DNA of 63,487 nt, counting the filler. It is 5 parts of 5 records of this genome, joined end to end, with 100 filler letters (N's around TTAATTAATTAA, not from the genome) between each part and the next. Parts side by side here need not be neighbours in the genome. Positions count along the whole stretch, not along the records: positions 48,672 to 58,081 come from SRR20825019_920; 4 more parts are not named here. One strand, 5' to 3'. Numbering within the stretch: position 1 is the stretch's first letter; each line of letters starts with the position of its first letter. The position numbers and the translations under genes were made by a program. Below are positions 43,757 to 63,487 of this stretch, piece after piece. The notes under the pieces were generated by a model. It worked only from the letters and a program-made list of their open reading frames with translations. It did not search any database and was not told the DNA's origin.

Positions 43757-43774
43757 GAAATTTAGAGTCATAGT

Positions 43775-44724: not shown

Positions 44725-44750
44725 AAAAACCCCAAATTGGGGCTTTTTTT
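44723..44750. terminator. Bidirectional terminator
   Basis: A-run, ccccaa / ttgggg stem, T-run between convergent genes. Confidence 0.6.
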
Positions 44751-44769
44751 ATTTATAATCGGTTACTAA

Positions 44770-45615
44770 TTATTTAGCTCCCCATTCTTTTAAAGACTTT
44801 TCATTTAAAGCTACATAATCAGTATTTCCGGCTGTTTTAGCTAGTTCTAATGATTTTTTTGCAGCTTCTATAGCTCCTTTTTTATCACCAGCTTTAGCAT
44901 AAATCAATGATTTTTGACGTAGTTGCCAGAAAGCAGGTTCTTTGTTCATATCTATAGCTTTATCAATCCATGTTTTAGCTTGATTAATATCTTTACCAGA
45001 CTCTAAATAGTAAACAGCTGAAGCATAATAATCACCCGCACTTGGACCATTCATCGTTTTTTCTATTCCAGCAGTAACTGCTTTATCAGTAAAAAACTTA
45101 ATTGGCACGCCTACATAAGCTTTCTCCCACATCATACCTAACAAAACAGAATCATTAGTTAAATCATCAAGAGACATAGTAAAAGTTTCAATATCAATTG
45201 GTAACGGATATGCATCAACAGTTACTTTTGCAGCTACTTTAGATTCGTCCCAATTTTCTGGAGTACCCCAACTTGAAGCATCGCTATAAAAATATACTTC
45301 CCAACTAGAAGCGCTTGGTTTTGTATAAACTGCGTACGTACCTGCTTTTAGAGTTTTACCTCCAATTTCAACGCCATCGCTGAATGTAATTTTGGTACTT
45401 GCATTTGCGCCTGTCCGCCACATTTTATCATAAGGAACTAAACTTCCAAAAATTGTTCTACCCTTCATAGAAGGACGAGAATATTCAAGAGTAACATCTG
45501 TTAATCCTACTTTTTGCTCAATTTTTTGAAAAGGGCTTGCTTGAGGAGTTTGTACTTGAGCCTGAATACTAATTGTAAGCATTAAGGCAGAAAAAAGTAA
45601 AATAATTTTTTTCAT
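44770..45615 (-). CDS. DUF2911 family exported protein
   Basis: Signal peptide; PQASP, YSRP..KGR.IFG.LVPY..MWRTGAN; C-terminal TPR-like helices. Confidence 0.8.
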   Translation of the reverse strand: MKKIILLFSALMLTISIQAQVQTPQASPFQKIEQKVGLTDVTLEYSRPSMKGRTIFGSLVPYDKMWRTGANASTKITFSDGVEIGGKTLKAGTYAVYTKPSASSWEVYFYSDASSWGTPENWDESKVAAKVTVDAYPLPIDIETFTMSLDDLTNDSVLLGMMWEKAYVGVPIKFFTDKAVTAGIEKTMNGPSAGDYYASAVYYLESGKDINQAKTWIDKAIDMNKEPAFWQLRQKSLIYAKAGDKKGAIEAAKKSLELAKTAGNTDYVALNEKSLKEWGAK

Positions 45616-45950
45616 TGTAATGGATTTAAGGTGTGTATATTTCCTACGAAAATACAATAAGCGATATTTTTAATAGTTAAGAAAAGCTTAAATATGTTAA
45701 TAATATTAACCTTCCCTCTTCCTGAAAACCACAGCTATACGCAAAACATGCGATAATTGTTAATTTTTTGTTTAATCTTTTTTTGATTTATTAAAACAAA
45801 CTAATTTTAAAGGAAAAAGAAATGTTATGTTAAATTTATTAAGAAGAATACTCCGAATAAAATTTGAAAATAAAGCTATTGAAGCTAAAACCTATAGGCT
45901 ATTACGTATGAATAAGAAGCTTTCAATTAAGCAAAGCAAATAAAAATAGC

Positions 45951-47255
45951 TTGACAGAAAAAATTACTATTTTTTGGTTTCGAAGAGATTTAAGACTAAT
46001 TGATAATGTTGGATTATATAATGCGCTTCAAGGAAAACATCCTGTGATTCCTATATTTATTTTCGATACTGAAATAATTAACGAACTTCCAAAAAACGAC
46101 CTGCGTATTAGCTTTATTTTTGAAACCCTTCAAAAAATACGTACTGAATTAAAGAAGTATGGAAGCAGTATTGCTTTATATCACGGTAAACCCGAACAGG
46201 TATTCGAAGAAATTTTTTCTGAATTTAATATTCAAAATGTATTAACCAATCACGATTACGAACCCTATGCAAGAACGCGTGATAAAAATATTGAAAAACT
46301 ACTTTCACGAAAAAGCATTGGTTTTACTACTTTTAAAGACCAAGTAATTTTTGAAAAAAATGAAGTTGTAAAAGACAATGGCGACCCATACATTGTTTAC
46401 ACTCCCTATATGAAAGTATGGAAGAAAAAATTTATTTCAGAATATCAAGAAAAAAAAATCAACACTAAATCGCATTTTAATAATCTTTATAAAAATTTAA
46501 AACTTCCTAATCTTTCTCTAAATGATATTGGTTTCAAAAAATCAGGGATACCAATTCCTAATTTTGATGTTTCTTCAACAACAGTTAAAAATTATGTAGC
46601 CAAAAGAAATTTTCCTGCGGAAGATGCTACAAGTTATTTAGGAATACACCTTCGTTTTGGTACAGTGAGCATTCGAGAAATAATAAAAAAAGCAACTTTT
46701 GAAACTAATGAAGTATTTTGGCAAGAACTAATTTGGAGAGAGTTTTTTATGCAAATTCTTTGGCATTTCCCAGAAACAGTGAAGAATGCGTTTAAAAAGA
46801 AATACGACCGTATTAATTGGCGAAATAACGAAGAAGAATTCCAAATTTGGAAAGAAGGAAAAACAGGCTACCCACTTGTTGATGCTGGCATGCGTCAGTT
46901 AAACGAAACTGGATATATGCACAATAGAGTTCGAATGGTAGCGGCTAGTTTTTTATGCAAGCACCTTTTAATTGATTGGCGGTGGGGTGAGGCTTATTTT
47001 GCGGAAAAATTAGGCGATTATGAAATGTCCAGCAATGTTGGTAACTGGCAATGGGTGGCAGGAAGTGGTGTTGATGCAGCCCCCTATTTTCGAATTTTCA
47101 ATCCAACTACTCAAATTGAAAAATTTGATAAAGAATATAAGTACATTAAAAAATGGGTGCCTGAATTTGGAAGCAGCAGCTACCCAAATCAAATGGTAGC
47201 GCATAAAGAAGCCCGTGAACGCTGCCTAAATATTTACAAAGCTGCTTTATCCTGA
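45951..47255 (+). CDS. phr: Deoxyribodipyrimidine (CPD) photolyase
   Basis: WFRRDLR, LRFGTVS, ELIWREF, GKTGYPLVDAGMRQL, MHNRVRM, GNWQW, PYFRIFNP. Confidence 0.92.
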   Translation: MTEKITIFWFRRDLRLIDNVGLYNALQGKHPVIPIFIFDTEIINELPKNDLRISFIFETLQKIRTELKKYGSSIALYHGKPEQVFEEIFSEFNIQNVLTNHDYEPYARTRDKNIEKLLSRKSIGFTTFKDQVIFEKNEVVKDNGDPYIVYTPYMKVWKKKFISEYQEKKINTKSHFNNLYKNLKLPNLSLNDIGFKKSGIPIPNFDVSSTTVKNYVAKRNFPAEDATSYLGIHLRFGTVSIREIIKKATFETNEVFWQELIWREFFMQILWHFPETVKNAFKKKYDRINWRNNEEEFQIWKEGKTGYPLVDAGMRQLNETGYMHNRVRMVAASFLCKHLLIDWRWGEAYFAEKLGDYEMSSNVGNWQWVAGSGVDAAPYFRIFNPTTQIEKFDKEYKYIKKWVPEFGSSSYPNQMVAHKEARERCLNIYKAALS

Positions 47256-47377
47256 AAACCAAAAGTTCTTTTTAGTGTTGTTAAATAAAATGTAAATAAA
47301 GTGTAATTTTATTTTGTTCTACACAATTTTGCTACTCTTGCACAGTTAAAAGAAAGCATTACAATAAAACCAACACT

Positions 47378-47965
47378 ATGAAGAAAATTTTAATACTGAT
47401 CTTCCCGCTATTTCTATTTTCGCTGACCTTGACAGCACAAGACTCTATTCAAATTATTAAAAATTCCCTTAACGACCAAATAACTGAAACTATTGAGAAA
47501 AGCAATAGTTATCAAGATTATAAGGTTATTAAAAAAGTAAAGTTAGCCACTTTAAAAAAAAATATTTTAGATACAGTTGCATTGCTGGAAAAAAATATAA
47601 ATTCTCAAGAGGTAGAATTAGGTCATAGAAAAAGCGAAATAGATTCACTTAGAAAGAACTTAACTAATACAAAACAAAATCTTGCAACTTCAAAAGAAAA
47701 AGAAGATGGTATTCTCTTTTTTGGAACCTTAGTGTCAAAAATTACCTACAATACGATAATGTGGGGTATAATTATTATTTTATTAGTCATTACTGGCTTC
47801 TTATTCTACCGCTTTATAAACAGTCACAAAATTACAAACGAAGCCCAATTAAAAATGGCTGAGATGGAAATAGAATTAGAAGATTACCGTCGAAATAGCC
47901 TTGAACGTGAACAAAAATTACGTAGAAAGCTTCAAGATGAAATTAATAAAAATCGAAAAGGGTAA
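47378..47965 (+). CDS. Conserved exported coiled-coil membrane protein of unknown function
   Basis: Signal peptide, SNSYQDYKVIK, coiled coil, TM, LEREQKLRRKLQDE; no catalytic motif seen. Confidence 0.7.
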   Translation: MKKILILIFPLFLFSLTLTAQDSIQIIKNSLNDQITETIEKSNSYQDYKVIKKVKLATLKKNILDTVALLEKNINSQEVELGHRKSEIDSLRKNLTNTKQNLATSKEKEDGILFFGTLVSKITYNTIMWGIIIILLVITGFLFYRFINSHKITNEAQLKMAEMEIELEDYRRNSLEREQKLRRKLQDEINKNRKG

Positions 47966-47970
47966 ATTAA

Positions 47971-48571
47971 TTAGGGTTCTGTTCTAGTAATTTTTGCTCC
48001 AATTGCACGAAGTCTTTCGTCAATATTTTCATAACCACGATCAATCTGTTCAATATTATGGATTGTACTAACTCCTTGTGCTGAAAGTGCTGCAATCAAC
48101 AATGAAATTCCTGCACGTATATCTGGAGAAACCATTGTTGTAGCCTTTAGGTTTGACTGAAAGTTATGACCAATTACTGTAGCTCTATGTGGATCGCAAA
48201 GAATAATTTTCGCTCCCATATCAATCAATTTATCTACAAAGAACAGACGACTTTCAAACATTTTTTGGTGAATAAGCACACTTCCTTTTGCTTGAGTACA
48301 CACAACAAGTACAATACTTAAAAGGTCTGGAGTAAACCCTGGCCATGGTGCATCTGCAACTGTAAGTATCGATCCATCTATATAGCCCTGTATTTCGTAT
48401 TCCTTTTGTAACGGAATATGAATATCGTCGCCTTTTTTATTGAGCTTAATACCAAGTTTTCTAAAAGTATCTGGAATAATACCAAGGTTTTCCCAACTAA
48501 CATTTTTAATTGTTATTTCACTTTTAGTCATAGCCGCAAGACCAATCCAGCTACCAATTTCAATCATATCA
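47971..48571 (-). CDS. murA: UDP-N-acetylglucosamine 1-carboxyvinyltransferase, C-terminal part (5' end cut)
   Basis: DMIE, PWPGFTPD, MFESR, SPDIRAG, IDRGYE. Confidence 0.92.
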
Positions 48572-48671
48572 NNNNNNNNNNNNNNNNNNNNNNNNNNNNN
48601 NNNNNNNNNNNNNNNTTAATTAATTAANNNNNNNNNNNNNNNNNNNNNNNNNNNNNNNNNNNNNNNNNNNN
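48572..48671. other. Artificial contig spacer
   Basis: N44-TTAATTAATTAA-N44. Confidence 0.98.
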
Positions 48672-49179
48672 TCAGCAGGGGCCAACCGCTAGCCCGCATC
48701 AAACAAAGAAAGAGAAGTTTGGCAAATCGTGTGAGTCAAAAGGTAGAGGGTGGGCGGGACTGAAACCGAATGACCCCCGCGGGGGTCAGCCACCGTGGGC
48801 CCCGTGCTGTACCGTGTACGGTCGCTCCACCTTGCGGTCCGCTGCACACGTCATGGCGACCCTCCGGGTGGGCCTGGGCCTCACGCGAGTTGCCGGGGGG
48901 CCCGGCCGGGCCCACCCGGACCGGCGCGGCCGCGCTGGTTTTTGAAACCGTCAGTGACGTTCTTGTCCGATCGAATGAACCGTAAACTCCACTGGGGCCC
49001 GACCCCGCCCGGCAATGCCCGGCCTGATGATGAGCCGGAGCGGCCAACCCACTCACGGCGCGGCACCTTGAGTGCAAAGGGTTATGTATATGGGTGGCTG
49101 TCTGTGGTGTAAGCTGTGGCGTATCAGTCGGCAACTGGTTCCGCCCCAAGCCGCGAGTGTGCCCGCGGTGGAGGTTGTC

Positions 49180-49692
49180 ATGAAGGCCTTTCGTGGCGAT
49201 GGAAAGTATGAGGGCGACGGCGGCGAGGCGCTGGAGCGGTTGTGGAATGCATTCGACTGGAGAGAGATCAAGAACTGCCCCGGTCGTTATGTGACGTCGA
49301 ATAGCACTGTGGGGTTGTTGTCGACGGAGGCACTGTGCGCGGAGGTAGGGGCTTCGGCAGAGTTCCACAGCATCAACATCGAAGGCAAAGACTCGGTGGT
49401 CATCGCGCGGTTGGCAGGCGGTGGCGGGGTATTGACCTATATCAAGCCGCACCAGCCAGTCCGGTATGTCCACACGCTCAACACTGAAAGTGGCCTTCTG
49501 CGCAAGGTCCGGGCCCTTGGTACCAGTCCACGTGCCCTGCATCTCGATCGCCTCTCACACGTGATGCCACTGATGCTCATACTTGACCAGCTTAGCCACG
49601 CGGAGGTCAATGCCTCTGCTACCCTCCTCGTCCGCAGGCTGTTGGATGTTGACCGTTGCAGCATGGGAACAAGGAGAAAGGAGGAGCGGTAG
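49180..49692 (+). CDS. Eukaryotic hypothetical protein with WREIKNCPGRY / GGGVLTY / YVHTLNTESG motifs
   Basis: Globular-looking sequence, TATA-like element at about 49087; start could be 49084 or 49180. Confidence 0.6.
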   Translation: MKAFRGDGKYEGDGGEALERLWNAFDWREIKNCPGRYVTSNSTVGLLSTEALCAEVGASAEFHSINIEGKDSVVIARLAGGGGVLTYIKPHQPVRYVHTLNTESGLLRKVRALGTSPRALHLDRLSHVMPLMLILDQLSHAEVNASATLLVRRLLDVDRCSMGTRRKEER

Positions 49693-49786
49693 AGAGTGGA
49701 TCTTGTGAACGAGGAGCTGGTCCGATGGAGAAGCTGGCATGGCCTTGGGGGCAGTCAGTGGCGCGGCAACATCACTGTACAACTGT

Positions 49787-50185
49787 TTATTTGGAGGGCC
49801 ACGGAGTAGAAGTGGACACCCTCGACATGGTCTCCAAGTCCACCGGCACCGCAAAGGCTTCGGACGCTGGTCGCTTGGCCCCCCTGAGCATGCGTGCACA
49901 GCGGGCCTTGCGCACCATGCGCTGTATCGGGTCAGGGTGTATATAAAACCAGTCGCGGTCGTTCTGGTTGCGGTTCTGATTGTAGGCCGCTTCGCGCTCC
50001 GGCGTGATCAAGTTGTCCTGCACAAAGTCCTTCAGTGAACCATGGCGGTACTGCTTGAAGCGAGTGACGTCGTCCGGCGCTGCGATAGGAGACGCCCGGC
50101 GGCCGGGCGGCGGCGACTCAGCGCGAGGCCACCGGTCCGGGTACGGCGTACGGTACGGCACCGGCCCGCTGGCGCGGCGGGTCAT
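49787..50185 (-). CDS. Small hypothetical protein (132 aa, Pro/Arg-rich N-terminus)
   Basis: ATG start, GC3-biased codons, TATA-like element just upstream, AATAAA overlapping the stop. Confidence 0.45.
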   Translation of the reverse strand: MTRRASGPVPYRTPYPDRWPRAESPPPGRRASPIAAPDDVTRFKQYRHGSLKDFVQDNLITPEREAAYNQNRNQNDRDWFYIHPDPIQRMVRKARCARMLRGAKRPASEAFAVPVDLETMSRVSTSTPWPSK

Positions 50186-50288
50186 GCAAGATATAACACA
50201 TCGGTCTGATCATAACCACGGCAAGCAGGCACCTGCGTCCCACCGTCGCCGGACAATTACACCACTTTTTTCTTCCAACCGCAGTCTT

Positions 50289-51488
50289 CTAAGCCGGGAT
50301 CTCAACCTCGAATGCATCAGTCCACACAAACGGAAGTATTCTCCCAGCTTCGTCAAACTGCACTGGGGCCCAGTAGGTCGGATCCCTACCGAGCCGGTAG
50401 TTCGGCTGTCCACTAACCTCGCATGCCTCGTGCGGCGAGTTTCCACAAAGTGACTTGCACGAAGGGTTGTTCCCGGGTCCCTGAAGCCACAGGTTACCCA
50501 TCCACAACAGAGTCGGATCTCCGTTGGGTGTCGCGCTTGGAATGACGGAAATTGTGTAGCCCTGGGCAGGGACGGTAAAGTGGCCACTCCCGTAAGCATC
50601 GCCGCGGCAAATGGGCGCGCTGGGATCAGGGCAATTCGCGTCGGAGTTTGGTAGGGACTGCCGCACCCACGGCCCCATAATGCTCTTGGAAGTGAAAACG
50701 ACAAAGCCCGAACCCTCCCTGCAGGCACAGCAGCAGTTGCCATACGCCACATAATACACGCCTTTGCGCTTGAAGAGCACCGGACTCTCCACAAAATCGT
50801 CTGGGAAAAACCCGGTGACATTGACGTGGGTTGCCGTCAGGTAGTCTTCTGACAGCCGCTCGATCGAGACGAGGTGGTTCTGGGGCCGGTGACCATCGAC
50901 TAATCCTGCGAAGATAATGTATCCCTGGCCATCATCATCGATAAAGATATAGTTGCCATCAGTCTGGCCGCCGAGCCGGCTCGACTGCGGTTTCAGCACA
51001 CCGTCAGGATAGGAGAAATGGATGCCGTCGTCTGAGACTGCATTGCCCCACACTCCCATGCCAAACCACGCAACAAACCGATGGCGAGTCTCGTCGTATA
51101 CTACCCACGGGACCCACTGTATCCCTGTGCCCTGAGGGAAGATCAGACCCTCGTCCTTCCATGACAGCAGGTCAGTCGATGTGTATACACCCACAACAGG
51201 GGCCCCCTGACTCGCCCATGTCCCCTCATAGCCAGTCGCGTTCCCGTAACGCTCTCCATACCAGTAGTATGTTCCATTTACACACAAGATCCCGCCGCTG
51301 TGCGCATCAATGATATTTCCGTTGATATCAGTCCTGGGCTGATCGTTCCGGATAGTGACGGTGCGGGATCGGCCACCCGAACTAGTTGTCTCGAGTGTGT
51401 GGTGCAAGCTTGCCACAGGGTATCTGAGGTGGGCTTGCGCAGCGGCGAATACAACTAACACGGCGAAGGATACACCTCGACGCCACAT
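50289..51488 (-). CDS. Secreted glycoside hydrolase family 43 (GH43_24-like five-bladed propeller)
   Basis: Signal peptide MWRRGVSFAVLVVFAAAQA; GNIIDAHSGG, YYWYGE, YTSTDL.SW, FIDDDGQGY, ERLSEDY, ESPVLFKRKGVYY, GPW, PAQ. Confidence 0.85.
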   Translation of the reverse strand: MWRRGVSFAVLVVFAAAQAHLRYPVASLHHTLETTSSGGRSRTVTIRNDQPRTDINGNIIDAHSGGILCVNGTYYWYGERYGNATGYEGTWASQGAPVVGVYTSTDLLSWKDEGLIFPQGTGIQWVPWVVYDETRHRFVAWFGMGVWGNAVSDDGIHFSYPDGVLKPQSSRLGGQTDGNYIFIDDDGQGYIIFAGLVDGHRPQNHLVSIERLSEDYLTATHVNVTGFFPDDFVESPVLFKRKGVYYVAYGNCCCACREGSGFVVFTSKSIMGPWVRQSLPNSDANCPDPSAPICRGDAYGSGHFTVPAQGYTISVIPSATPNGDPTLLWMGNLWLQGPGNNPSCKSLCGNSPHEACEVSGQPNYRLGRDPTYWAPVQFDEAGRILPFVWTDAFEVEIPA

Positions 51489-52345
51489 TGTCAGCCCGCA
51501 GAGGTATTCGACAGCAGACCGACACTTCAACAGGATATATGTAGATGATGTGACTGATAGAGCGGCTGTCTGAGACCTGGCTGCAGTCAGTGAAGGGGAG
51601 TCCAAGCGGCGGGCCGGACCACGGTGGACCTTCCAAAACTCTCCCGCCTCGGACCTTGCACAGCTGGCGGGGTGTCACGTCCCCTGGCCAGCCGCCGGGT
51701 AAAAGATGACCCAGGCGAGCGCCCGGCGGGGACAGTGACCGGGGTGCCAGCGCCACACCCAGACCCGCGCGGACCGGGAGCCGGCCGGCACGCGGGGCCG
51801 CCCACCCCGCGCCGGCGCGCCGCCCCAGATTGATCGATGGGAAACAAAAGGTATCAGTATACATGGGTACTGTAATCGACCACCCTCAAGTTACCGTCGG
51901 ACGCCTCCTCCATCCTCAGCTGAGTAGGTTGCAGCCACCGTGCTACTACGGTGAGAGTGAACTCACTGGTACGGTAACGGGCCGGGGGCCCCCGCCCCCG
52001 CGCGCCCCGCCGGCAGTGAGGGCCGGACAGGCGGTTGCCGGCGTGCTCGGGGGCCCGGACGGGGACGGCGGACGCAGCGCCCCGCCCCGGCCTGGGCGCT
52101 CCCGCCGTGGTCCGGCCCCGCGGCCCCGGCCCGTCCGGCTCACTCCGGGGCTCTGCCTGCCGGGCTGCCGGGCAAGACTGGCAGCCTGCGCATTCATTGC
52201 GTTCTTCTTTTGCTAGGCAATTCACTGAGCCCGGCTCGGCCGGCCAGGGGGAGCACTGCCACGGTGGGGCCCTGCCCGGCCGGGGCGCCGCCAGGTGGCC
52301 GGGGACAGTAGCTGTATAAAGTTCTTGAGTTGCAACGTATCACGT

Positions 52346-55300
52346 ATGTCCGACGGCAAACAGATGGGGTTGCGGGGGTTTGCGGTGCTTGTCGTGCTCA
52401 GCTGGCTCTGCGCCTTGTGTCAGGCTGGGTGCAAGTCCAGTGTGGCACTGCGGGAGCCGGACCCGGCGGATCAGATGCTCGTAGTGGCCTTGGGGCCTGG
52501 GGTTAGTAAGGACGAACAGGAGGAGATTGTTCGCATGAGCAAGGACAACCCCGACTTGGCAGTACTCAAGGTAGCTGAGATAGGTAGATATGCGGCAGTG
52601 GGGGAGCTGCTGAATCGCTCTGGCTATGTCAAGTGTCCTGAGCAGGCTCTTTCTAAGGCCGTGACGGGGTGCTTGAGCCCTGCTGACGGCTCGACTGGAG
52701 TGCTCACTGCAGAGAGGTCCGTTGCTGCCAGTCCGGCACCTATGATGGATATACCACACTCAAGTGAGAGCACACTAGCGAAGGACTGTGTCGGGGAGGT
52801 GGTGGCGGGTGTTGCCAACAGAAGCTGTCTGGATAAGGTGTCCTCAAGTGTCCTGAAGTCGGTATGGCGATGGCGTGGGCTGGAGGAGGTGGCGGAGGCT
52901 ATTGACTTCCTCGTGGACTGCGGTGCGCTCAGTGACACGAACTATGTCGTCAGTAGTGTGCTCCGGGAGGAGCTACGTGAGACCGAACTGGACGACCGCA
53001 AGACAGCATTGTACGATAAGGTTCTCCAGCGGACGCAAGGTGCCTATGCCTCAACATTACCATTCTATTCGAGGATTATTGATCAGGGGGCTAGTGGCGA
53101 TACCAGGACACCCAGGCTGCTTACGTGGTTAATACAAGATCGAGGGTTCAAGGTCAAAACAACAAAGGAGGGGTCCATTTCTAGATACCTCAAAAGAGAG
53201 AGTCTTCTCTTCTCAAAGCAACAGACCCTTACCCGAGACAGCGTCTTTCTGCAAGTCCAATTAATTCTTTTGCTGGAAGAAGTCCACGATCACGCCTGGA
53301 GACAAGCGGCACGATGGAATCTGATCAATTGGCAGCCAGAGCCGCAGACGGTTCTGCTAGAGACGTGGGTGGAAGCCGGATTAACTGATCGGGGTGACGT
53401 TGTGCGTGTGATCGAGGACTACATGCACCTCACCTTGCCCTCTCTTCGTCCCGATACCATAGTGGCCGTGGTGAATACGTACATAGCGTCAGGCAATGCG
53501 AAGGCACTCGGTTATTTGGACTTCAAGTCCGTGTTGCCTGTTGTCCTGCCCGAGCTGGTGTCCTCCTGGCATATTCCGGAGGGGTTTGGTGAAGAGCTAC
53601 TTGAAATGGCGAAGATGAACGGGCTTGTCAATACCGCACGGCTCGCGTCGGCGTTGGGATCGCATCCGTCTGCTTCCGATTGGAGAGCTATCTATTCAAA
53701 GGACTCGAAAAAGATTGGCGGCCACCTTTCTTGGCACTACCTGGCGACATCCTTGGATGCAGGAGGCCACTCAATGGATTGGCGTAAGCATCTGAACGAG
53801 ATGGGCTGCGCTTCAGCGACTATGCTAGACCAGTAAGTGGATTGATTCGTTGCATGCTGGGTAATGGATGGGTTGGCTGACGTTGCATCCCTGCAGATCA
53901 AAGTGTGGAACATGCTGGGGTAAGTCGGGTTACTGTTAATTTGGGGAGGCGATCTCACGATGTTCGCTTAATTTGATTTTGTGTTTCTTTCTGTGAATAT
54001 TGTGTATATTGTGAATCGATGGCACTGACTTCTTGATTGTCACCTTGCAGCGAATGCGATATCAACGGTAATTGGGATGCGGATGTGCCTCAAGACCCTT
54101 GGGGCATTTGGTATGCAGCTCTCTGTCATGTCACTTGTGGAGGCCATCAAGTATCGAGCAGATCCACACTTACACAACCGTTACCAAAACTACAAGAGGA
54201 AGTCCCCAGCTGCCAACCTAGAGGTCTCGAATGGAGTGCGAATCATCGATTCCAAAGATCCAATGACTCGCCGACAGATTGTTGCAATGGACCCCCAGCT
54301 AGTAATGTCAAATTACAAAGACCACGGTGGATCCTCCTCGATGGTTCCGGAGTGGCTGACAGGGTTGGGGGGAGAGGGACTCCAACCACTTATGTGCAAT
54401 ACTGCCAAGTGCAAGACAATTGGAGATTCTACCACGCGTGCACTGGGCAGTTTCATGTTTGGATCTCTTCGCCATCCAAAGCTGAAGACCTCAAAGGAGG
54501 CGCATGACAGTCAGCGTAAAAAAGGGGTAAATTCCGCGCCAAAGGTTGACATTGACGATGTTAGACTGTCGCAACAGGACAGAGATCTGCACATGGCCAA
54601 GGTGGTATTAAGGCACTTCAAGGGTCATAAAAGGCTTCAAGCGCTGCGTGCGAACACGGGCGCTTTGATGCCCGCCACACGTGATGAGCTGCTGGAGGAC
54701 ATGGTTGTGTGTGACAAGAGCAGCGGGTATGGCATTCAGATCGACAAAAGGCAACCGAACACGATGAATGCCCATGGCGCATCAGTCCATCGCATTGAAA
54801 AGGAGCTCAACACACATGGACCATTGGTAGTGACGTTGAGGTGGGATTACGTCCTATTGCTGTTGAAAAAAGCACCGCGTGTCACTGCTCATGCCGATGC
54901 CGGATCGGCTGTTGAGGTAACATTAGTGGACAGAACTAGGGCTCCGAATCGGAACGAAGCAAGCTCAAGCAGGGATGCTTCACATGCGGTGGTGCTCATA
55001 GGGTATCAAAAGGCAGACCCTGTCGACTATTGGATCTTCCAGTGAGTATCGGCGTGATCATCCTCGTCTTGAAGGTCGTCCTGACATCTGTGGTGCAGGA
55101 ACTCATGGGGAACCGACTGGCATCAAGGACAGGAGGGATACTTCTACCTCCAGAAGGGTCCATTGAAAACACGACCGCCCACCCTCGATCCTGGTGTCCT
55201 CACTCGGGATTTTTTCGAAGCGGCTGATGGTGTTAGGACAATCGGGCCCAACATTGATGGCGGCACCTTAGGGCGCTGGATGAAGCTTAACCGGAAATGC

Positions 55301-55453
55301 CAACTGAGCCTCGGAGTAACGAGCTGTGGAGATGGTTATTGCGCAAATATTGCACGGGAAGTGCAGGTCACTGGAGATGTCGAGGGTGCAGACTATGCAT
55401 GCGTCTGTGCCACGAGTCCATTCACAGCACAGGCCACCACGTGCGCGCGATAG
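52346..55453 (+). CDS. Spliced, secreted papain-family (C1A) cysteine protease, about 951 aa; exons 52346-53832, 53897-53919, 54051-55041, 55099-55453
   Basis: Splicing gives a 2856-nt frame with DWR...DQSKCGTCWANA, SHAVVLIGY and YWIFQNSWGTDW..GQEGYF; signal peptide MGLRGFAVLVVLSWLCALCQA; TATAAA at 52315. Confidence 0.88.
53833..53896 (+). other. Spliceosomal intron 1 (64 nt)
   Basis: GTAAGT donor, CTGAC branch point at 53877, TGCAG acceptor. Confidence 0.88.
53920..54050 (+). other. Spliceosomal intron 2 (131 nt)
   Basis: GTAAGT donor, CTGAC at 54025, TTGCAG acceptor. Confidence 0.88.
55042..55098 (+). other. Spliceosomal intron 3 (57 nt, contains an in-frame TGA)
   Basis: GTGAGT donor, CTGAC at 55081, TGCAG acceptor; removal restores QNSWG. 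Confidence 0.9.
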
Positions 55454-55618
55454 GGCATTAGAATCTAAGCATATGAATGATTAAAAACAAATCCAGAACA
55501 TGTGTCGGAAGTTATATATTGTTTAGCCAAAGTCTATATTGGTACTGACTGCTGATTGAAGTGGTCAACATGAACCTTTATTGCTAGGAGCTCTCTTCTT
55601 CAAAGCCTATGATTATAC

Positions 55619-57355
55619 CTACAACAATATTTGCTCAAGAGTTTCAATGTATTTTTGAGCAGTTATTGGTGTGCCAGCAGATTTCAATACCGTCAAGATA
55701 TGAGCATCCATACCCAAAACTAGGTTCTCGTCCGAGGTTCCCTCACCGGTAGTATACCCATGCAACGTGAGACGGACCCCGTGTACACGGGCTGCCAGCA
55801 TCTGCAGGAGTGCCACCGCAAACTTATCGTTTCCAAAGGCCCCTGCTCCCAGCTTCCCGCTGTGGATATTTGTGAATCCATGCTTGGTTGCAAACTTGAA
55901 CCCAGCGCTTGCCGTGGCATAAAGGTCTGTCAGAGCTTGCATGCTAGTGGACGAAACGGCGTAAACCTTCGTGTCCTTCTGACTGTGGTCCATGAGATCT
56001 GGTGCTGCTATCGCAAGGGTGCTGTAGATCTGTTTCCCAGATGCCAATGCAGAAAAGAATGAAGTCGAACCTTTCGCCTGACGCCATTGAGCATAGCCGT
56101 GGCGGCCATACGTGTCCTTGTTCAGTTTAAGCACCCTCACAACATTCTCAATAATAACAGGCTTCGGTGTACCTCTGCCCGCCCCCTGTCCACCTTCCCT
56201 TGTGAGCAGCGAACACCAATACTTGCCATGCGATCCAAGATCCGACACAGACGCCACAGTAGACATGTCAACGCTCTCGCCAGATTTGGTGGTGTAGTGA
56301 TTCAGAGCAAGCTCGGCCAACTGCGGCGACTCCATAAACATCCGCTCCTCTTGAACATTGCCATGAGTGGCAAAACCTCCTCCGAGCCTCTTGTTTGCAA
56401 AGTCAACCCAGAGTGTTTTTGACATGTCTTTTCCTTCGAAAGAGTAGAAATCTTGCGTGAACCGGAACTCCTGGGCGGTGTCTGAGGGCGGAGAGAATGT
56501 TTCCTTCAGATAAGTACCACTGGTGATATATGTGGTCATATCGCTACCAGCCTGTTCCCATTTGAAGTCCGGCGGTGTTGTCGGGTAGGCCTCGTTGAAT
56601 TTCTTGATCGCCTCCTCGAATGCGGCCGCCTTGTCGTTGTAAAATGCCCTTTGATTCTCTTCCTCTTTGGTATTTGTCCCCGCGGCCTTCAGCAATTGGA
56701 TGACGTGTTTAAGCGCTTTGAAAGGGTCCGCACTGTTTGATTGCTGGGCTAGTTTGAACTCCGGACAGCGGAAACTCCAGTTGGTGTTGTCAATCTTGAA
56801 GTCATACGGGTTAGGAGACAGGTCCTGTCCCTCCCACTTGACGTACTCATTCGTGACTCTATTTCCTATCAAGCTCCACTTATTCTTATTGGCGTTCCAC
56901 CACTTCACAGCGGCCTCGTCGTCGTCGTACAGTGCTATCCCGTGTTGGCCGTTGCGTTGGTAACTGAACTCGAGATACTTAACCGCTGGGTTAACTATCG
57001 TGTAGCGCCAACTGCCAAAGGTGAGGCTTCCTTGGGAAGTATCCCAAGCCCACTGCTTGCTAAAGTGCTTTGAGGCCCATTCCTTCAGCTTGGGCGCCAA
57101 ATCTAGATTCTTCATCATGTTCCGGTGCGCCGCTCCGTCCTGGTACATCCACTCCTCGGTCCCGTCACTATATCCCTTAAAGACGGCATCCTTAAAGCCA
57201 GAAGGTGTGACGTCAGAGGCACTGTTACGGGCTATCTTGAATGTGACTTTAGCAATTAACCTCCTGTCCATGTGGTTGACATGGCCGGCGTTCACACACC
57301 ACACGGCAAGCACCAGGCCAATAAGAAGACCTGCGCCCTGACCTGGTAGAGCCAT
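55619..57355 (-). CDS. Signal-peptide protein (578 aa) with a C-terminal poly(ADP-ribose) glycohydrolase (PARG) catalytic domain
   Basis: MALPGQGAGLLIGLVLAVWCVNA; WVDFANKRLGGGFATHGNVQEE (GGG-x7-QEE); IHSGKLGAGAFGN; AATAAA about 37 nt after the stop. Confidence 0.82.
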   Translation of the reverse strand: MALPGQGAGLLIGLVLAVWCVNAGHVNHMDRRLIAKVTFKIARNSASDVTPSGFKDAVFKGYSDGTEEWMYQDGAAHRNMMKNLDLAPKLKEWASKHFSKQWAWDTSQGSLTFGSWRYTIVNPAVKYLEFSYQRNGQHGIALYDDDEAAVKWWNANKNKWSLIGNRVTNEYVKWEGQDLSPNPYDFKIDNTNWSFRCPEFKLAQQSNSADPFKALKHVIQLLKAAGTNTKEEENQRAFYNDKAAAFEEAIKKFNEAYPTTPPDFKWEQAGSDMTTYITSGTYLKETFSPPSDTAQEFRFTQDFYSFEGKDMSKTLWVDFANKRLGGGFATHGNVQEERMFMESPQLAELALNHYTTKSGESVDMSTVASVSDLGSHGKYWCSLLTREGGQGAGRGTPKPVIIENVVRVLKLNKDTYGRHGYAQWRQAKGSTSFFSALASGKQIYSTLAIAAPDLMDHSQKDTKVYAVSSTSMQALTDLYATASAGFKFATKHGFTNIHSGKLGAGAFGNDKFAVALLQMLAARVHGVRLTLHGYTTGEGTSDENLVLGMDAHILTVLKSAGTPITAQKYIETLEQILL

Positions 57356-57472
57356 CCTGACTTGAGGATGCCAGAACAGACTCGGTCGGCCATATATCAG
57401 GACGTGAGAAGGGCCTGACGAAACCGGTCCGGAGACAGGCCTGGCTTGCTGCCGGGCAAGCCATTCTCTACT

Positions 57473-57913
57473 CAACTTCAAGTTGAAGCCGCCGCGGCCG
57501 TGAAAGCGGTGGGGCAACCCTGGGTTGGGGAACTCGAGTCACTGCCAGTGGCTACCCGGACGGGCCGTTGCCGCAGTCGGGGAGTCTGGCGGGCCGGGGG
57601 ATCCCGCTGCACAGTGACGCCGTGTCAGTGGGGAGTCTTGGTTGGGCCCAACGCACTTGTGTGCTATGGAAATAACGAACCTGAGCCAGTGCAAGTACTG
57701 AGCCGCCGCCTTGCCGTTGGGCGACCCCGGAGTTGGGGTCCGGACCGCGGGTGGGGCACCGGTCGGCGGCCCTACGCAGTTCTATGCTCTAGACATAACG
57801 AAGTTCAATAAGTTTGAGCCAGTGTGAGCGGCCGTTGCAGTTGGGCGACCCTGCGGGTTGCGGGTCGCGGCTTGGTGGGGCACTGGTCGGCAACTTGCAC
57901 GCTTCTGTGCTCT
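57473..57913. repeat. Diverged ~125-bp repeat: two near-complete tandem copies plus partial copies
   Basis: Blocks ataacgaa, tgagccagtg, ttgc(c/a)gttgggcgaccc, gtggggcac(c/t)ggtcggc and ttct(a/g)tgctct recur at about 57670-57790 and 57795-57913; partial copy at about 57490-57530. Confidence 0.65.
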
Positions 57914-58081
57914 CATGAGTACGGCTTCATTCTGACAGAGCCTGGGATCAAACCGAAAAAACATTATCAAAACATTTTCATTACCCCCAAGTTTCAGGGC
58001 CGCGGCTGACAGTGGCCGCCGGACCGGCCGGCGCGCACGGCTGGACCTCCCCGCAGGCCGATAAATTGTTTCTTCTAGAAT

Positions 58082-58181
58082 NNNNNNNNNNNNNNNNNNN
58101 NNNNNNNNNNNNNNNNNNNNNNNNNTTAATTAATTAANNNNNNNNNNNNNNNNNNNNNNNNNNNNNNNNNNNNNNNNNNNN
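58082..58181. other. Artificial contig spacer
   Basis: N44-TTAATTAATTAA-N44. Confidence 0.98.
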
Positions 58182-58362
58182 ACCGGTGAGCTCTTACCTC
58201 ACCTTTTCACCGTTACTAGCAAAGCTAGCTGTATGTTTTCTGTGGCACTTTCCCTAGGCTTACACCCGCCGGGCATTACCCGGTACTATTTTACTATGGA
58301 GTCCGGACTTTCCTCAAAAATTACTAAAAATAGTAATTTTGCAGCAGTACAGTCACCGCATC
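58182..58362 (-). ncRNA. rnpB: RNase P RNA (type A), 5' portion; 3' part cut by contig edge
   Basis: Minus strand GAGGAAAGTCCGGACTCC, GGGTAATGCCC, AGGGAAAGTGCCACAGAAAA, GGTGAAAAGGTGAGGTAAGAGCTCACC; TTGACT-17-GATAAT promoter upstream. Confidence 0.95.
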
Positions 58363-58431
58363 CTAATTATCTATTAGAAAGTCAATTAAGTCAATGATAG
58401 TTAAAATAACTAATTTATACTTCAAAAAAAT

Positions 58432-59286
58432 TTATACTTTAAAAAATTGACTATTAAACTTCTTGTTAATTTCTATAAGAGATTTAGGGAATAGATCTAA
58501 ATTATATTGTTCATCATATGCATTTCCATAAATAATTCTACATTCTTTATAAGTTTTACATTTTAAACCAATAAGTATAGATTTAAGAATAACAAATAGT
58601 GCTAAATATATTGAGGTCTCTGGAGATGATAATCTGTGCTCTATCCTATAAGGTATTTTATCTGGAACTCTTATTGATGTAGTTCTATTATTTCTTCCAT
58701 AGCTTACAGAAGAAGGAGCATGAAACTTATAATTAAATCTCAATAAAGATTCATATGATGAACAAAATACCATAAAACTATTCATCATATTTGATAAAAT
58801 ATAGTAAGCTGCATTATCTAAAGCCTTTTTGTTATCAAATAAATTACCTTCCTTATTAATTATATTGATATGAATATGCATAGCGTTTCCATAATCACTT
58901 TCAAAAGGTTTTGGTGATAAATACGCTTCCCCTCCACTATTTAGTGCAGATAATTTTATTTTATTAATATAAAAATTTACTTTTTCTATAAAGTTATTTA
59001 TATAAGTTTTGATGTTAGTTGTATTGATCTTTAAATTAATATCAAGGATATTAACATCAATCTCAAATTGATTTTGTCCTTTTTCTTTTTTTATAGGAAT
59101 AGCTAGTTTCTTTTGAAACTCTTCAAAATTTACCTTACCCGACAAGTAAAATTCTATTTCAGCTCCAAGTACTGGAAAAAATCCTCTATGAGCAAATTCT
59201 TGTGCTAATTTTTCTATAGCATTGTTTTTTTTAAGATTGTTTTCTATTATAGTTAATCTATTTTGAATCTCATCTTCTATATGCAT
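58432..59286 (-). CDS. Glutamine synthetase-family protein, catalytic domain only
   Basis: GAEIEFY, EKGQNQFEI, PKPF..DYGNAMHIH, NNRTTSIRVP, RIEHR; about 284 aa with no N-terminal beta-grasp domain. Confidence 0.8.
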   Translation of the reverse strand: MHIEDEIQNRLTIIENNLKKNNAIEKLAQEFAHRGFFPVLGAEIEFYLSGKVNFEEFQKKLAIPIKKEKGQNQFEIDVNILDINLKINTTNIKTYINNFIEKVNFYINKIKLSALNSGGEAYLSPKPFESDYGNAMHIHINIINKEGNLFDNKKALDNAAYYILSNMMNSFMVFCSSYESLLRFNYKFHAPSSVSYGRNNRTTSIRVPDKIPYRIEHRLSSPETSIYLALFVILKSILIGLKCKTYKECRIIYGNAYDEQYNLDLFPKSLIEINKKFNSQFFKV

Positions 59287-59994
59287 CACTTAATCAAAAA
59301 TAAAGTTTATTATAATTTTTTTGATAAGTTATCAGGTCTTTCATTATGCTTCAATGATTATTCGTTTAATGATGATAATTATTTAAATTCTAGTAATCAA
59401 ATTAAAAATTATTTTGATGCAAAAAAAGTAATTACTATGAATCAAAAACATGAAACTAATATTATTCATGTAAATAATTATAACATAACTGAAAAAGAAG
59501 GTGATGCTATCATTACAGAACTTAAAGATATTGTGCTGATAGTAAAAACTGCTGATTGCGTACCTATTTTAATTTCAAATAAGCAAGGAAATATAATTTC
59601 CGCTATTCATGCAAGTTATAAGTCTGTTAAAAAAGATATCATTAATAAAGTTTCTCATGAGATTAAGAAGAAAGATCAAAGTAAATTATATGCATCTATT
59701 GGACCATCTATTAGACAAGATAGTTATGAAGTAGGTAAAGAAATTTATGATGAAGTTATTAGAGATAATAATTCTTATAAAAACTTCTTTATAGAAAAAT
59801 TAGGTTATAAATATATGTTTGATTTAAGTGGTTATGTTAAAAGTAAACTTTTACTTCAAGGAGTGCACATTATACATCAAAATACAAATGATACATATAA
59901 AAACCCAGGACAATATCCAAGCTATAGATATGCTTGCCATAATAACATAAAATTTCAAGGAAGAATTTTATCTGCAATAGTAATAAAAAGCTAA
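59281..59994 (+). CDS. pgeF: YfiH/PgeF family protein (purine nucleoside phosphorylase/laccase-like domain)
   Basis: NQKH, GDAIIT, KTADCVPIL, AIHASY, IGPSI...YEV, FDL, SYR. Confidence 0.88.
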   Translation: MHHLIKNKVYYNFFDKLSGLSLCFNDYSFNDDNYLNSSNQIKNYFDAKKVITMNQKHETNIIHVNNYNITEKEGDAIITELKDIVLIVKTADCVPILISNKQGNIISAIHASYKSVKKDIINKVSHEIKKKDQSKLYASIGPSIRQDSYEVGKEIYDEVIRDNNSYKNFFIEKLGYKYMFDLSGYVKSKLLLQGVHIIHQNTNDTYKNPGQYPSYRYACHNNIKFQGRILSAIVIKS

Positions 59995-59998
59995 ATTT

Positions 59999-60706
59999 AT
60001 GCAAAAATATTTTTTAAAATTATTTACTCCAAGAATATTTATAAACATATATAATTACTCATTATTGCCTTCTATGATTATAGGATCAATTTTATTTAGT
60101 GCTGGCCTATATTTTGCACTTTTTAATTCACCTTTAGATTATCAGCAAGGTGAATATGTAAGGATTATGTATGTTCATGTACCTTTTGCTCATTTGAGTA
60201 TGATTATATATTTAATTATTGGTTTACTTAGTATTATTGCTATTACTCATGAGGTGAAGCTTGCATATATTTATGCTGCATCTCTTGGAGAAATAGGAGT
60301 AATTTTTGCTTTTTTAACTTTAATTACAGGTATGATATGGGCAAAACCTATCTGGGGTACTTGGTGGGTATGGGATGCAAGACTTACATCAATGTTAATA
60401 TTATTTATGCAATATCTTGGATATGTCTCTATTACTAATTCAAATGAAATAATTAGTAAATCATATAAACCAGCCTCTGTTATAGCAATAATTGGTTTAA
60501 TAAATATACCAATTATAAAATTTTCTGTTAATATATGGGCAAGTTTGCACCAACCATCAAGTTTAATAAGGTATGGAGGTCCGTCTATTGATGGATCTAT
60601 GTTGCTTCCACTTTTTATAATGTTTTCTGGTTTTTGTTTTTATTCATTTGTCATTTTTTTGTTAAATACAAGAACCAGGCTTTATCAACTACAAAATAAG
60701 ATATGA
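59999..60706 (+). CDS. ccmC: Heme exporter protein C
   Basis: RIMYVHVP, WAKPIWGTWWVWDARLTS, LHQ. Confidence 0.95.
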   Translation: MQKYFLKLFTPRIFINIYNYSLLPSMIIGSILFSAGLYFALFNSPLDYQQGEYVRIMYVHVPFAHLSMIIYLIIGLLSIIAITHEVKLAYIYAASLGEIGVIFAFLTLITGMIWAKPIWGTWWVWDARLTSMLILFMQYLGYVSITNSNEIISKSYKPASVIAIIGLINIPIIKFSVNIWASLHQPSSLIRYGGPSIDGSMLLPLFIMFSGFCFYSFVIFLLNTRTRLYQLQNKI

Positions 60707-60709
60707 TTT

Positions 60710-61024
60710 ATGACTTACATAGTGACTGATGAATGTGTAAAGTGTAAATACACAGATTGTGTTGAAGTTTGTCCTGTGGATTGCTTCCATGAAGGAGAAA
60801 TGATGCTAGTTATTAATCCACAAGAATGTATAGATTGTGGAAATTGTGTAACAGAATGCCCAGTAGAAGCTATTAAACCAGAAGCAGCAGAGCTAGTAAC
60901 TTGGATAGAAAGAGCATCAAAATATTCTGCAATTTGGCCAAGAATTACAAACGCTAAAACTCCACTTATAGATGCAGACAAATACAAAGATGAGAAAAAT
61001 AAGTATGAAAAATACTGCACTTAG
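60710..61024 (+). CDS. fdxA: FdxA-type ferredoxin
   Basis: [30 protein letters not shown]. Confidence 0.92.
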
Positions 61025-62321
61025 CTTCGTAATTTGTCTAATTATCAATTCTATAAATTATTGCTTTGCATACAACTATATAAAAGACGCTCAAACAGAA
61101 GATTTTTTATATAGAGCAACCAAACCACTACTTGATAAAGTAAATTTAAAGAATGTAAAATTTTTCATTATTGATGATGATAATATTAATGCATTTACAG
61201 ATGGTAATAACATATATATTAACTCAGGTTTAATAGCTAGCCAGGATGATATTAATGTATTACTTGGTGTAATATCTCATGAAATTGGGCATATTGTTCT
61301 TAGGCATGTTGATGTGAGATGTGAAAAGATAGATAAAATTCAAAAAGCAATGATTGCAAATATGCTTATTGGGGCAGTATCTTTAGTAAATTTAACATAT
61401 AGTAGTTTAATTGTTAATGTACTTTCAAGTACATACACAGAAACAGGTATAGCAGATTTTTATAAACACTCTCAAGCTGATGAATCTAGTGCTGATATTT
61501 TTGCATGTAATATCATGAATAAACTAGGTCTTGATAGCCAAGGTCTTACTAAGTTATTTTACGATTTACATAAAAAAGATTACTGGCAAGATGAAGATAA
61601 TAAAATTTTATATTATAGAACTCATCCAAAACATAAACAAAGAATTTCCAAAATCAATAATTTTGATAAATCGAAAATTAAAATATTAAGTCCAACATGG
61701 CAAAAATTACAAGATGAGTATAAGATGATTTCTCTAAAGCTTTTATCATTAAGAGAATCCACAGATATAGTTTTTAAAAAAATTGACAAAGATAATAGCA
61801 AAGCCTCTATGCTAGCTAGAGCAATTTTATATACAAGGATAAGAGACTATAAAAATGCTATAAAAAATATAGACAATTTATTAGAATTAAACCCTAATAA
61901 TCCATATCTATATGAAGTAAAAGGCCAGATATTATTTGAACATGGTAAAAAAGAAGCATTAGAGTATTTTAATAAAGCAGTAATTCTTTCTAATGAAAAT
62001 AGTATTTTAAGATGTCAAAGAAGTATAATGACAATATATGCACTTGATAAGCTAGATAAGAGCCATTCATATATAGAAAGAGATTTAAGAGAATCTGTAG
62101 ATAAAAATTTATTAAACTTAAATGGTCATTATTTTTTGGGATTATATTATAGTAAAATAGGTAAACAAGCAGAGAGTAATTTAGAACTAGGTTATTATTA
62201 TCATAAATTGGGCATGAAATCTAAGGCCAAAATATTTATTAAGAATGCTTTAAATAAGCTTACAAAAAACACTCCCAAATGGCAGAAGGCACAAGATCTT
62301 TATTATTTAGTTGATAGGTAA
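61005..62321 (+). CDS. M48 metalloprotease with TPR domain (BepA/YfgC-like)
   Basis: Signal peptide from ATG 61005; INAF, HEIGH, E..AD, THP...R, C-terminal TPRs. Confidence 0.85.
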
Positions 62322-62921
62322 TTAAATTACTTTTTGCCTATATATATGATAATTTATATTAATTAACATAAATATGAATTTCTTTTAAATGAAATAAATC
62401 TTAGGATAAATTAGGTTTTTTAGAATTTATTTAACTTATATATCTTTTTAAACTGCTTAAATAATATGTATTAAAAAATTTATTAGGAATAGAAGTATTT
62501 ATTCTAAAAGCCAATTCTTGATCTAAAACTTTAGAACTTAGCTTCAACAATACTCTTCCTTATAACTATATTATCTAGCATATAAAATAAAATATCTCAA
62601 CTTTTACGCCTTTGGGTATAAATAATAATTGAGATAAATTGCTAAAACATCTATGTGTGTTCCTAGTAGTAATGATTTCAACTAAATTATTACTTATCAT
62701 TTGTAACTGAAAAGCAGCAAGTAAAAGATAACTACTCCTTCAAGTTGTTGATATTTTATAAAAGACTCTATTTTAATATGTTAATTATGACATATATTCA
62801 TCTTGGATGAATATATATAATACATAAAATAGCTAAATACACATTTACTGAAAATGTTGACTGGATTTATTGAACCTTCTATCTTATAAATTTAACTTTT
62901 AAATATGTGAGGTTAAGTTAA

Positions 62922-63487
62922 ATGGGTTTAAATTTTCAATATATCTCAGAATATATTTCTTTAAATACAAATAAGTTAAAAGATAAAGATAATGCATTTA
63001 TGTATCTTTATGAAATTCTAAGTGATAAAGAATCTATAATTGATCTAGATTATGATGAGTTTGTTTCGATCATAAATATGTTGGATCTGAGTTTAGATTT
63101 GATTTTTCAAAAGACTAAACTAGTTAAGGACCTTGATGTTATGAAATATTTTGAAGTTTTGCTAAAATCACAAAACCCAGAAAATTATCTAAAGATTTTA
63201 CATAGTCAAAATGACCATGCATGGATGATCAAGATTGCAGCATCAATTGGTAGAATAGATGCTATTGATTACTTATTAAACTTACTTCCGGATCAGGAAA
63301 CTCGTAATAAAATGATTCATGCCTACAACGACACCCCTTTTAGATCTGCAGCTAGAAATGGCCATACGGATGCACTAAAATATTTAGTAGAATTAGAAAA
63401 AGATCCAATAAAAATATGTAAAATGATTCATGCACTTGATGAAAGAGCATTCCGATATGCAGCTAAAAATGGTCATACAGAGACACT
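62922..63487 (+). CDS. Ankyrin-repeat protein, paralogue of 264-2069; runs off the window and is absent from the ORF track
   Basis: GAGGT RBS, ATG 62922, 188 open codons: MGLNFQYISEY...LDYDEFVSIINMLDL...RNKMIHAYNDTPFRSAARNGHTDALKYLVEL...KMIHALDERAFRYAAKNGH; same 111-nt period. Confidence 0.88.
   Translation, partial: MGLNFQYISEYISLNTNKLKDKDNAFMYLYEILSDKESIIDLDYDEFVSIINMLDLSLDLIFQKTKLVKDLDVMKYFEVLLKSQNPENYLKILHSQNDHAWMIKIAASIGRIDAIDYLLNLLPDQETRNKMIHAYNDTPFRSAARNGHTDALKYLVELEKDPIKICKMIHALDERAFRYAAKNGHTET

Follow-up and report, generated by a model that had tools for sequence, protein, structure and literature searches.

Can a poly(ADP-ribose) glycohydrolase (PARG), the main eraser of poly(ADP-ribose) (PAR), work outside the cytoplasm of the cell that makes it? 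The question is raised by a minus-strand gene at positions 55619-57355 of a stretch of assembled DNA of 63,487 nucleotides, filler included (the window), for which a model's reading of the letters, the original prediction, had proposed a secreted PARG-like enzyme of a eukaryote. To our knowledge, the characterised canonical PARGs are nuclear, cytosolic or mitochondrial and every characterised PARG is intracellular. We found that the gene is a real, transcribed and intronless nuclear gene of a protist and that its product, judged by motifs, profiles and modelled fold, is a true PARG-type macrodomain with intact catalytic motifs and a predicted activity. The reading that we prefer, and which as a whole we consider on balance probable, is that of a signal-led PARG-type hydrolase, lumenal or exported, that belongs to a subfamily with bacterial named members and is made by a protist. 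The parts of the gene and its product are the following.

55619-57355, minus strand: PARG-like coding sequence, 578 amino acids from the ATG at 57355-57353; stop codon at 55619-55621
57287-57355, minus strand: signal-peptide-like N-terminus, residues 1-23, putatively cleaved
57287-57328, minus strand: hydrophobic stretch, residues 10-23
56921-57286, minus strand: orphan tryptophan-rich region, residues 24-145, without detectable relatives or confident fold
56486-56920, minus strand: helical region before the macro core, residues 146-290, which aligns with the corresponding part of PARG catalytic domains
55622-56485, minus strand: PARG-type macrodomain core, residues 291-578, delimited by PF05028, model and structure matches
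56345-56407, minus strand: PARG signature VDFAN...GGG-x7-QEE, residues 317-337, with the predicted catalytic glutamates E336 and E337
56375-56407, minus strand: VDFANKRLGGG, residues 317-327
56345-56353, minus strand: QEE, residues 335-337, at the spacing GGG-x7-QEE
56213-56302, minus strand: insertion, residues 352-381, absent from the seven relatives aligned (alignment A3)
56000-56017, minus strand: LAIAAP strand, residues 447-452
55829-55861, minus strand: glycine-rich loop SGKLGAGAFGN, residues 499-509, aligned with the GCGAFGGD loop of solved PARGs

All motifs on which the original prediction relied were found where it had put them in the open reading frame (ORF), and its assignment to the PARGs was confirmed by several routes. 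The PARG match of the ORF is far beyond chance: the Pfam profile PF05028 (PARG_cat_C) was matched in two stretches at E 1.4e-12 (48.1 bits, with a cut-off of 26.3), and a phmmer search of the PDB returned 16 rows at E ≤ 1, of which the first 15 were PARG chains and the last an unrelated spidroin. In the best of these matches (8adj, E 1.6e-5) the VDFAN/QEE and glycine-loop motifs were both aligned. The profile made from an alignment of 110 sequences (A1) found the PARGs of the PDB at E 1.8e-25, with about 250 positions covered. Within the aligned relatives E336 and E337 were conserved in 109 of 109, as was G326 (109 of 109), and within the aligned rows G503 and G505 in all 110 and F507 in 105 of 110; the GxGxF diphosphate-binding loop that follows the last core strand is present (residues 499-509). 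The AlphaFold (AF2) model calculated with A1 had block-mean model confidences (pLDDT) of 75-95 across most of residues 291-578 and of 54-58 at 361-380, and was poor before residue 291. When this model was compared to solved structures, all top Foldseek rows were PARGs (best E 2.8e-8), and VIA-align ranked Tetrahymena PARG first (Z 17.5, rmsd 3.3, 269 residues), with animal PARG chains at Z 13.3-14.6, bacterial-type PARGs at 13.1-15.2 and generic macrodomains at 12.0 or below. In the Atlas, residues 230-578 were connected at 0.96 to PF05028 clusters.

The comparison to described enzymes places the protein as follows. With the canonical eukaryotic PARGs (Tetrahymena 4epp/4l2h, human 4b1h, mouse 4na0, Drosophila 8adj), its best structural matches, it shares PF05028, the VDFAN and GGG-x7-QEE motifs and the GxGxF loop, but the identity is only 15-19%, the profile for the N-terminal part of the catalytic domain (PF20811, PARG_cat_N) was not reported by Pfam at E ≤ 1, and the protein adds an orphan N-region of 120 residues and the signal-like N-terminus. 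With the bacterial-type PARGs (PF10021/DUF2263; Thermomonospora curvata 3sig/3sih, Deinococcus radiodurans 5zdb) it has the macrodomain fold and the catalytic logic in common, whereas its PF10021 match (14.1 bits, E 0.063) lies below the cut-off of 23.5 bits; according to PMC8120803, a ribose cap limits the bacterial-type PARGs to exo-activity. The closest relatives, at 31-44% identity, were found in a bacterial PARG_cat_C subfamily (P0001 and members in Chlamydiota, Planctomycetota, Verrucomicrobiota and Actinomycetota metagenome-assembled genomes (MAGs)), of which none is characterised. They share R386, P397, P399, the AIAAP strand and D477 with the protein and frequently carry N-terminal signal or anchor segments as it does, but they lack the equivalent of residues 24-230 (the alignment starts at about 230) and the insertion 352-381.

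We collected the members of this subfamily in several ways. A HMMER search of 1.84 billion representative proteins retrieved 261 at E ≤ 1e-3 and 99 at E ≤ 1e-10, with none at E ≤ 1e-30; the best representative match had E 2.5e-28 and 44% identity. Details were obtained for 150 of the 261 representatives, in a library that holds no organism names. PF05028 was passed by 59 of the 61 relatives that were scanned out of these 150 (P0002-P0050 without P0011, plus 12 more distant ones, 11 of them long), and the match of P0136 (97.7 bits) was split in two stretches as well. Word-seeded protein searches with the protein and with A1 gave a sole match, the hypothetical protein P0001 of Protochlamydia phocaeensis, a number that reflects the limits of seeding and not rarity; P0001 is 31% identical over the catalytic half and has a signal-like start of its own. 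A scan with one peptide pattern through prokaryotes only (one genome per species), which is no gauge of the eukaryotic share, gave 25 loci, which by record title belong to Chlamydiota (12), Planctomycetota (3), Verrucomicrobiota (2), Actinomycetota (3), Alphaproteobacteria (2) and 'uncultured bacterium' (3). Metagenome contigs searched with the protein itself, and viral contigs, gave no relative; with a three-row alignment (A4) as the query, the metagenome contigs yielded 28 loci, which reach at most 36-37% identity across the domain and all lack the N-region. Neither NCBIfam nor PADLOC has a model that covers the subfamily. The protein scored 22-27 bits to PDB PARGs versus up to 115 bits within the subfamily, and these sequence comparisons make it a divergent member of a PARG_cat_C subfamily that is uncharacterised and well separated from the assayed enzymes. 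The original prediction had not noticed this membership; the protein is no isolated oddity among canonical eukaryotic PARGs, for the subfamily counts 261 representatives and its named members are bacterial, mostly Chlamydiota.

The export signals of the subfamily were surveyed in 176 sequences: the protein, the 150 representatives and the 25 loci, with a few duplicates. Among the 158 with at least 40 residues before the motif, 69 had an N-terminal hydrophobic segment (30 signal-like, 60 transmembrane (TM)-like), while shuffled upstream regions gave 6 and 15. Judged by eye, the starts include ones of the Sec, lipoprotein and twin-arginine types, and there are also long double hydrophobic stretches like those of chlamydial inclusion-membrane proteins. 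Besides Chlamydiota, loci titled Verrucomicrobiota, Actinomycetota and Alphaproteobacteria also had members with export signals. As 69 of 158 members carry signal-like or membrane segments, export or anchoring would be a trait of the subfamily and not a quirk of one gene, and it looks like a habit of these PARG_cat_C proteins. In a FastTree phylogeny of 169 rows (7 short rows were dropped) the protein was found on a long branch (1.16) without a supported clade, and for that reason we claim no donor; the nearest rows were P0003, L001 (a locus of a Chlamydiota MAG, with an ORF that matches P0003) and P0002, and the nearest labelled neighbour was chlamydial.

The substrate is where the preferred reading meets its most serious competitor, in which the location is as proposed and the enzyme acts on something other than PAR: mono-ADP-ribose on proteins, ADP-ribosylated nucleic acids or small conjugates. 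This possibility, which overlaps our own explanation on the targeting, is one that we hold tentatively. It is favoured by the distance of the subfamily to the assayed PARGs, by the presence of export-signal members in several bacterial phyla, outside whose cells we assume little PAR, and by the domain fusions of some relatives: NADAR (P0083), which points to ADP-ribose chemistry, and OGFr_N (P0132, P0144). A long TPR array was found in P0106. The genomic surroundings fit it too, as no conserved partner and no PARP-like neighbour was found among the 89 ORFs of 15 bacterial loci (the PF05028 gene was visible in 13 of these, L011 and L021 being represented by a wrong-frame ORF). The subfamily genes sit there among housekeeping genes, and some chlamydial loci adjoin ankyrin, kinase, MYND or Fic genes. 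On the other side, all PARG signature residues are retained, both glutamates included, and structurally the PARG chains outrank the generic macrodomains (Z 17.5 versus at most 12.0).

In the same collection of loci, L011 (titled Roseiarcus MAG) and L014 (titled Actinomycetota MAG) had near-identical N-termini despite their different phyla, which suggests a recent transfer or a binning error.

Whether the protein begins where the signal-like peptide begins was judged with contigs of two public runs, X1 and X2 (one sample), that were aligned to 52000-58081. These are possibly from the same sample as the assembly and therefore no independent proof of the sequence. The features that bear on the gene model are the following.

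55610-57363, minus strand: cDNA-like contig (X1 record 3, 1757 nucleotides), collinear with the PARG-like gene, no joints, 10 letter differences
52352-55481, plus strand: papain-like peptidase gene, 945 amino acids, convergent with the PARG-like gene, with a signal-like start
53833-53896, 53919-54049 and 55042-55098, plus strand: introns of the peptidase gene, GT..AG, skipped by X1 and X2 contigs

The contig 48672-58081 that carries both genes is eukaryotic, because the cDNA-like contigs skip the three GT..AG introns of the peptidase gene; these introns had been predicted from the sequence before the joints 53832>53897, 53918>54050 and 55041>55099 were seen in the contigs. The PARG-like gene is expressed and intronless, since 55610-57363 is covered by an unspliced and collinear cDNA-like contig; X2 record 5 covers 55569-55719 in addition, and 57364-58081 has no coverage by X1 or X2 contigs. 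In the assembled transcript no ATG precedes the one at 57355; the transcript ends 8 nucleotides upstream of it and passes unbroken through the AG dinucleotides beside it. Nor does an in-frame ATG occur between 57356 and 57538. As far as the contigs show, the start codon of the original prediction thus stands without an upstream exon. A leader of this length is not exceptional: an adaptor-like loose end lies 12 nucleotides before the peptidase ATG, so that very short leaders should be normal in this organism. We take the loose ends on the X1 and X2 contigs, of which one lies directly at 52352, to be adaptors from template switching and tagmentation. The third-position GC content (GC3) of the PARG-like gene (0.59) is like that of its neighbours, the peptidase gene (0.59) and a glycoside hydrolase family 43 (GH43) gene (0.64), and the gene is compositionally native in that respect.

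The N-terminus of the protein looks like a signal peptide in its shape, from which we infer secretion. It has a hydrophobic core of 12-13 residues (10-21; Kyte-Doolittle maximum over 10 residues 2.91, at residue 9), and V-x-A (V21, A23), read from the sequence, precedes Gly24. Small residues are the rule at positions -3 and -1 before a signal-peptide cleavage site, and V-x-A fits this rule. Both neighbouring hydrolase genes begin with similar signal-like peptides. The signal that the original prediction had proposed was in this way upheld in its core and cleavage motif, and it was weakened by the missing basic n-region and the positive flank.

These last points belong to a set of observations that weigh against the preferred reading. 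Residues 1-9 contain no Arg or Lys, unlike the N-termini of both neighbours, and residues 24-38 are net positive (two Arg, one Lys, one Asp); by the positive-inside rule such a flank after the core favours a catalytic domain on the cytosolic side. A basic n-region without positive bias after the core is common, and not obligatory, in eukaryotic signal peptides. No relative above 44% identity was found in which the conservation of the N-terminus could be checked. The records of X1 and X2 carry no RNA label, their cDNA nature being deduced from the spliced joints and the adaptor-like loose ends, and such contigs cannot prove a 5' end; the genomic contig ends 726 bp upstream and a rare longer isoform is possible. 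Finally, the unsupported tree, the prokaryote-only collection and the unnamed representatives leave a bacterial origin of the gene conjectural.

Because of the uncharged n-region and the positive flank, the N-terminal helix could also serve as an uncleaved anchor that holds the same enzyme with its catalytic domain on the cytosolic face of the ER (endoplasmic reticulum) or another organelle. An anchored version would erase ordinary intracellular ADP-ribosylation at the membrane, as TM-anchored bacterial relatives may do at the host-facing side of a vacuole. The 60 of 158 relatives with TM-like segments before the domain, some of them double, agree with such a topology, and so does the model, in which one continuous helix runs over residues 7-25. 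We nevertheless regard it as unlikely: a strictly hydrophobic core of 12-13 residues is what cleaved signals usually have and would be short for an anchor, the V-x-A ahead of Gly24 has the form of a cleavage site, and both neighbours, classic lumenal or secreted hydrolases, have similar N-termini. The signal peptide might also open a bipartite leader that targets a complex plastid or another endomembrane-bounded organelle instead of lysosomes or the cell exterior, as the 20 residues that follow the putative cleavage site have a basic character and many Ser and Thr; this we consider very improbable, for nothing in the data hints at a plastid, the neighbours start with plain signal peptides and the aromatic residue at +1 that is the rule in some algae is absent. 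A bacterial contamination or assembly chimera, in which the signal would be a bacterial Sec signal, might come to mind since contigs from several bacteria are joined in the window and the relatives with names come from bacteria, but it is hardly credible and is contradicted by the spliced neighbour on the same contig, whose end lies about 130 bp from the gene, and by the separate cDNA-like contig and native GC3 of the gene itself.

In the preferred reading of a signal-led, lumenal or exported hydrolase, residues 1-23 would act as a cleavable signal peptide that is cut after Ala23 and carries the protein into the ER. From there it would move on to the endolysosomal or phagosomal lumen or to the outside of the cell, together with the adjoining signal-bearing GH43 and papain-like hydrolases. 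The macrodomain would bind ADP-ribose and, by homology, E336 and E337 would hydrolyse the O-glycosidic bonds of PAR or a terminal ADP-ribose conjugate. The purpose could be the digestion or salvage of prey material, or the removal of ADP-ribose marks made by others; the roles of effector, counter to toxins and scavenger that the original prediction had put forward are conjectural. The gene was probably acquired from a bacterium of the Chlamydiota kind or from another member of the PVC group (Planctomycetota, Verrucomicrobiota, Chlamydiota), long enough ago to have taken on the codon composition of the host, and a protist may here have put a bacterial gene to use.

A wider proposal, towards which we are more sceptical than confident, is that a whole exported branch of PARGs works outside the cytoplasm of its producers: in Chlamydiota, in other bacteria and, after gene transfer, in a protist. 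If true, the members of Chlamydiota would be host-directed or vacuole-membrane effectors that erase host ADP-ribosylation, those of other bacteria (with Sec- or Tat-like signals) would act in the periplasm or the medium, and the protist member would do so along the secretory or phagolysosomal route. Substrates in the form of ADP-ribose polymers or conjugates would then be met in extracytoplasmic compartments, which is undescribed for any PARG. An expressed eukaryotic PARG with a secretory leader, in a subfamily whose bacterial members bear export or anchor signals too, would suggest that ADP-ribose is turned over in lumenal, extracellular or host-facing compartments, and the environmental Chlamydiota would gain a candidate effector class against host ADP-ribosylation.

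With respect to the literature, the passages of PMC8120803 and PMC4245714 retrieved by term search describe canonical and bacterial-type PARGs, do not mention secretion of a PARG, and contain 'Chlamyd' only as Chlamydomonas. In full-text searches, as far as titles and the first part of abstracts go, no secreted or chlamydial PARG and no extracellular or periplasmic macrodomain hydrolase was found; among the matches listed for PARG or glycohydrolase with chlamydial genera the word PARG was absent, and no paper was found that joins PARG, secretome, ADP-ribose and signal peptide. These searches agree with the earlier statement that no secreted eukaryotic PARG was known. The family is known and the subfamily is covered by Pfam; what seems to be undescribed is that a eukaryote expresses a member with a secretory leader, and that the subfamily is exported in character.

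The stretch between the signal-like peptide and the macro core had been described as about 270 residues of tryptophan-rich unknown sequence, which holds for part of it. There are 11 Trp in the 267 residues 24-290, and residues 24-145 are orphan: among the 150 relatives listed of the 261, no best stretch starts before residue 157. Pfam reported nothing for residues 24-235 other than BigA_N at E 0.51. The pLDDT of residues 24-145 was mostly below 50 in the full model, and residues 24-235 folded alone reached 36, which is unusable. Residues 146-290, on the other hand, were structurally aligned with PARGs: the VIA-align ranges start at model residues 142-153 for PARG chains, and at 168-177 for a few bacterial-type chains. 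An Atlas lead from the N-region to a PARG_cat_N cluster (0.75) is weak and below the level of trust.

The insertion at residues 352-381 (pLDDT below 50 at residues 369-376) was considered as a retained intron; this was rejected, as it has no GT..AG signal and the cDNA contig is collinear across it. The differences between genome and cDNA contigs were also inspected. In the PARG-like gene (55619-57355) the residue was changed in 7 of 8 differing codons, and in the peptidase gene (52364-55444) in 10 of 15. Fast evolution particular to the PARG-like gene was rejected given the similar behaviour of its neighbour; the residue-changing differences could stem from weakly constrained divergence between strains or from sequencing error. 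Two pairs of direct repeats of 17-18 nucleotides, each 124 nucleotides apart, lie at 57711-57891, upstream of the PARG-like gene, in a region of 61% GC without coverage by cDNA-like contigs.

The two neighbouring genes both encode putative hydrolases. The spliced peptidase has a papain-type Cys motif, and its NSWG motif is restored across the third junction. Its Pfam match to Peptidase_C1 is weak (E 0.022, below the cut-off); about 480 residues before the catalytic Cys are unmatched, and a long insertion lies between the Cys and His motifs. The other neighbour is the following.

50289-51488, minus strand: GH43 glycoside hydrolase gene, Pfam PF04616 at E 5.6e-11, with a signal-like N-terminus

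For GH43, 112 relatives were retrieved at E ≤ 0.001 (best identity 58%), including 7 from the protist transcriptomes of EukProt, which is consistent with a contig that comes from a protist. The region between the divergent GH43 and peptidase genes (51700-52350) has a GC content of up to 79% (at 52000-52299) and may hold a promoter region common to both; only short pieces of a third X1 contig meet it.

The window consists of five unrelated contigs joined end to end, with spacers that each contain two runs of 44 N around a linker of 12 bases.

1-27783: contig 1, 23% GC, bacterial
27884-36619: contig 2, 57% GC, bacterial, with ordinary bacterial genes
36720-48571: contig 3, 33% GC
48672-58081: contig 4, 9410 bp, about 55% GC, eukaryotic, carries the PARG-like gene
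58182-63487: contig 5, 26% GC
27784-27883, 36620-36719, 48572-48671 and 58082-58181: spacers, across which features are not readable

No transfer RNA was found in the window, and nothing in it matched Rfam at the gathering threshold. Where Rfam was silent, at the end of the last contig (58182-58330, minus strand), there is a sequence that we take to resemble the 5' half of a bacterial RNase P RNA, severed by the contig end. The 23% GC contig (1-27783) contains genes for an ankyrin-repeat protein (264-2069) and a TPR protein (9178-10563) near those for PBP2, a histidine kinase and an ABC-F ATPase, a gene set that is reminiscent of an intracellular symbiont and that comes from the same assembly as the protist contig.

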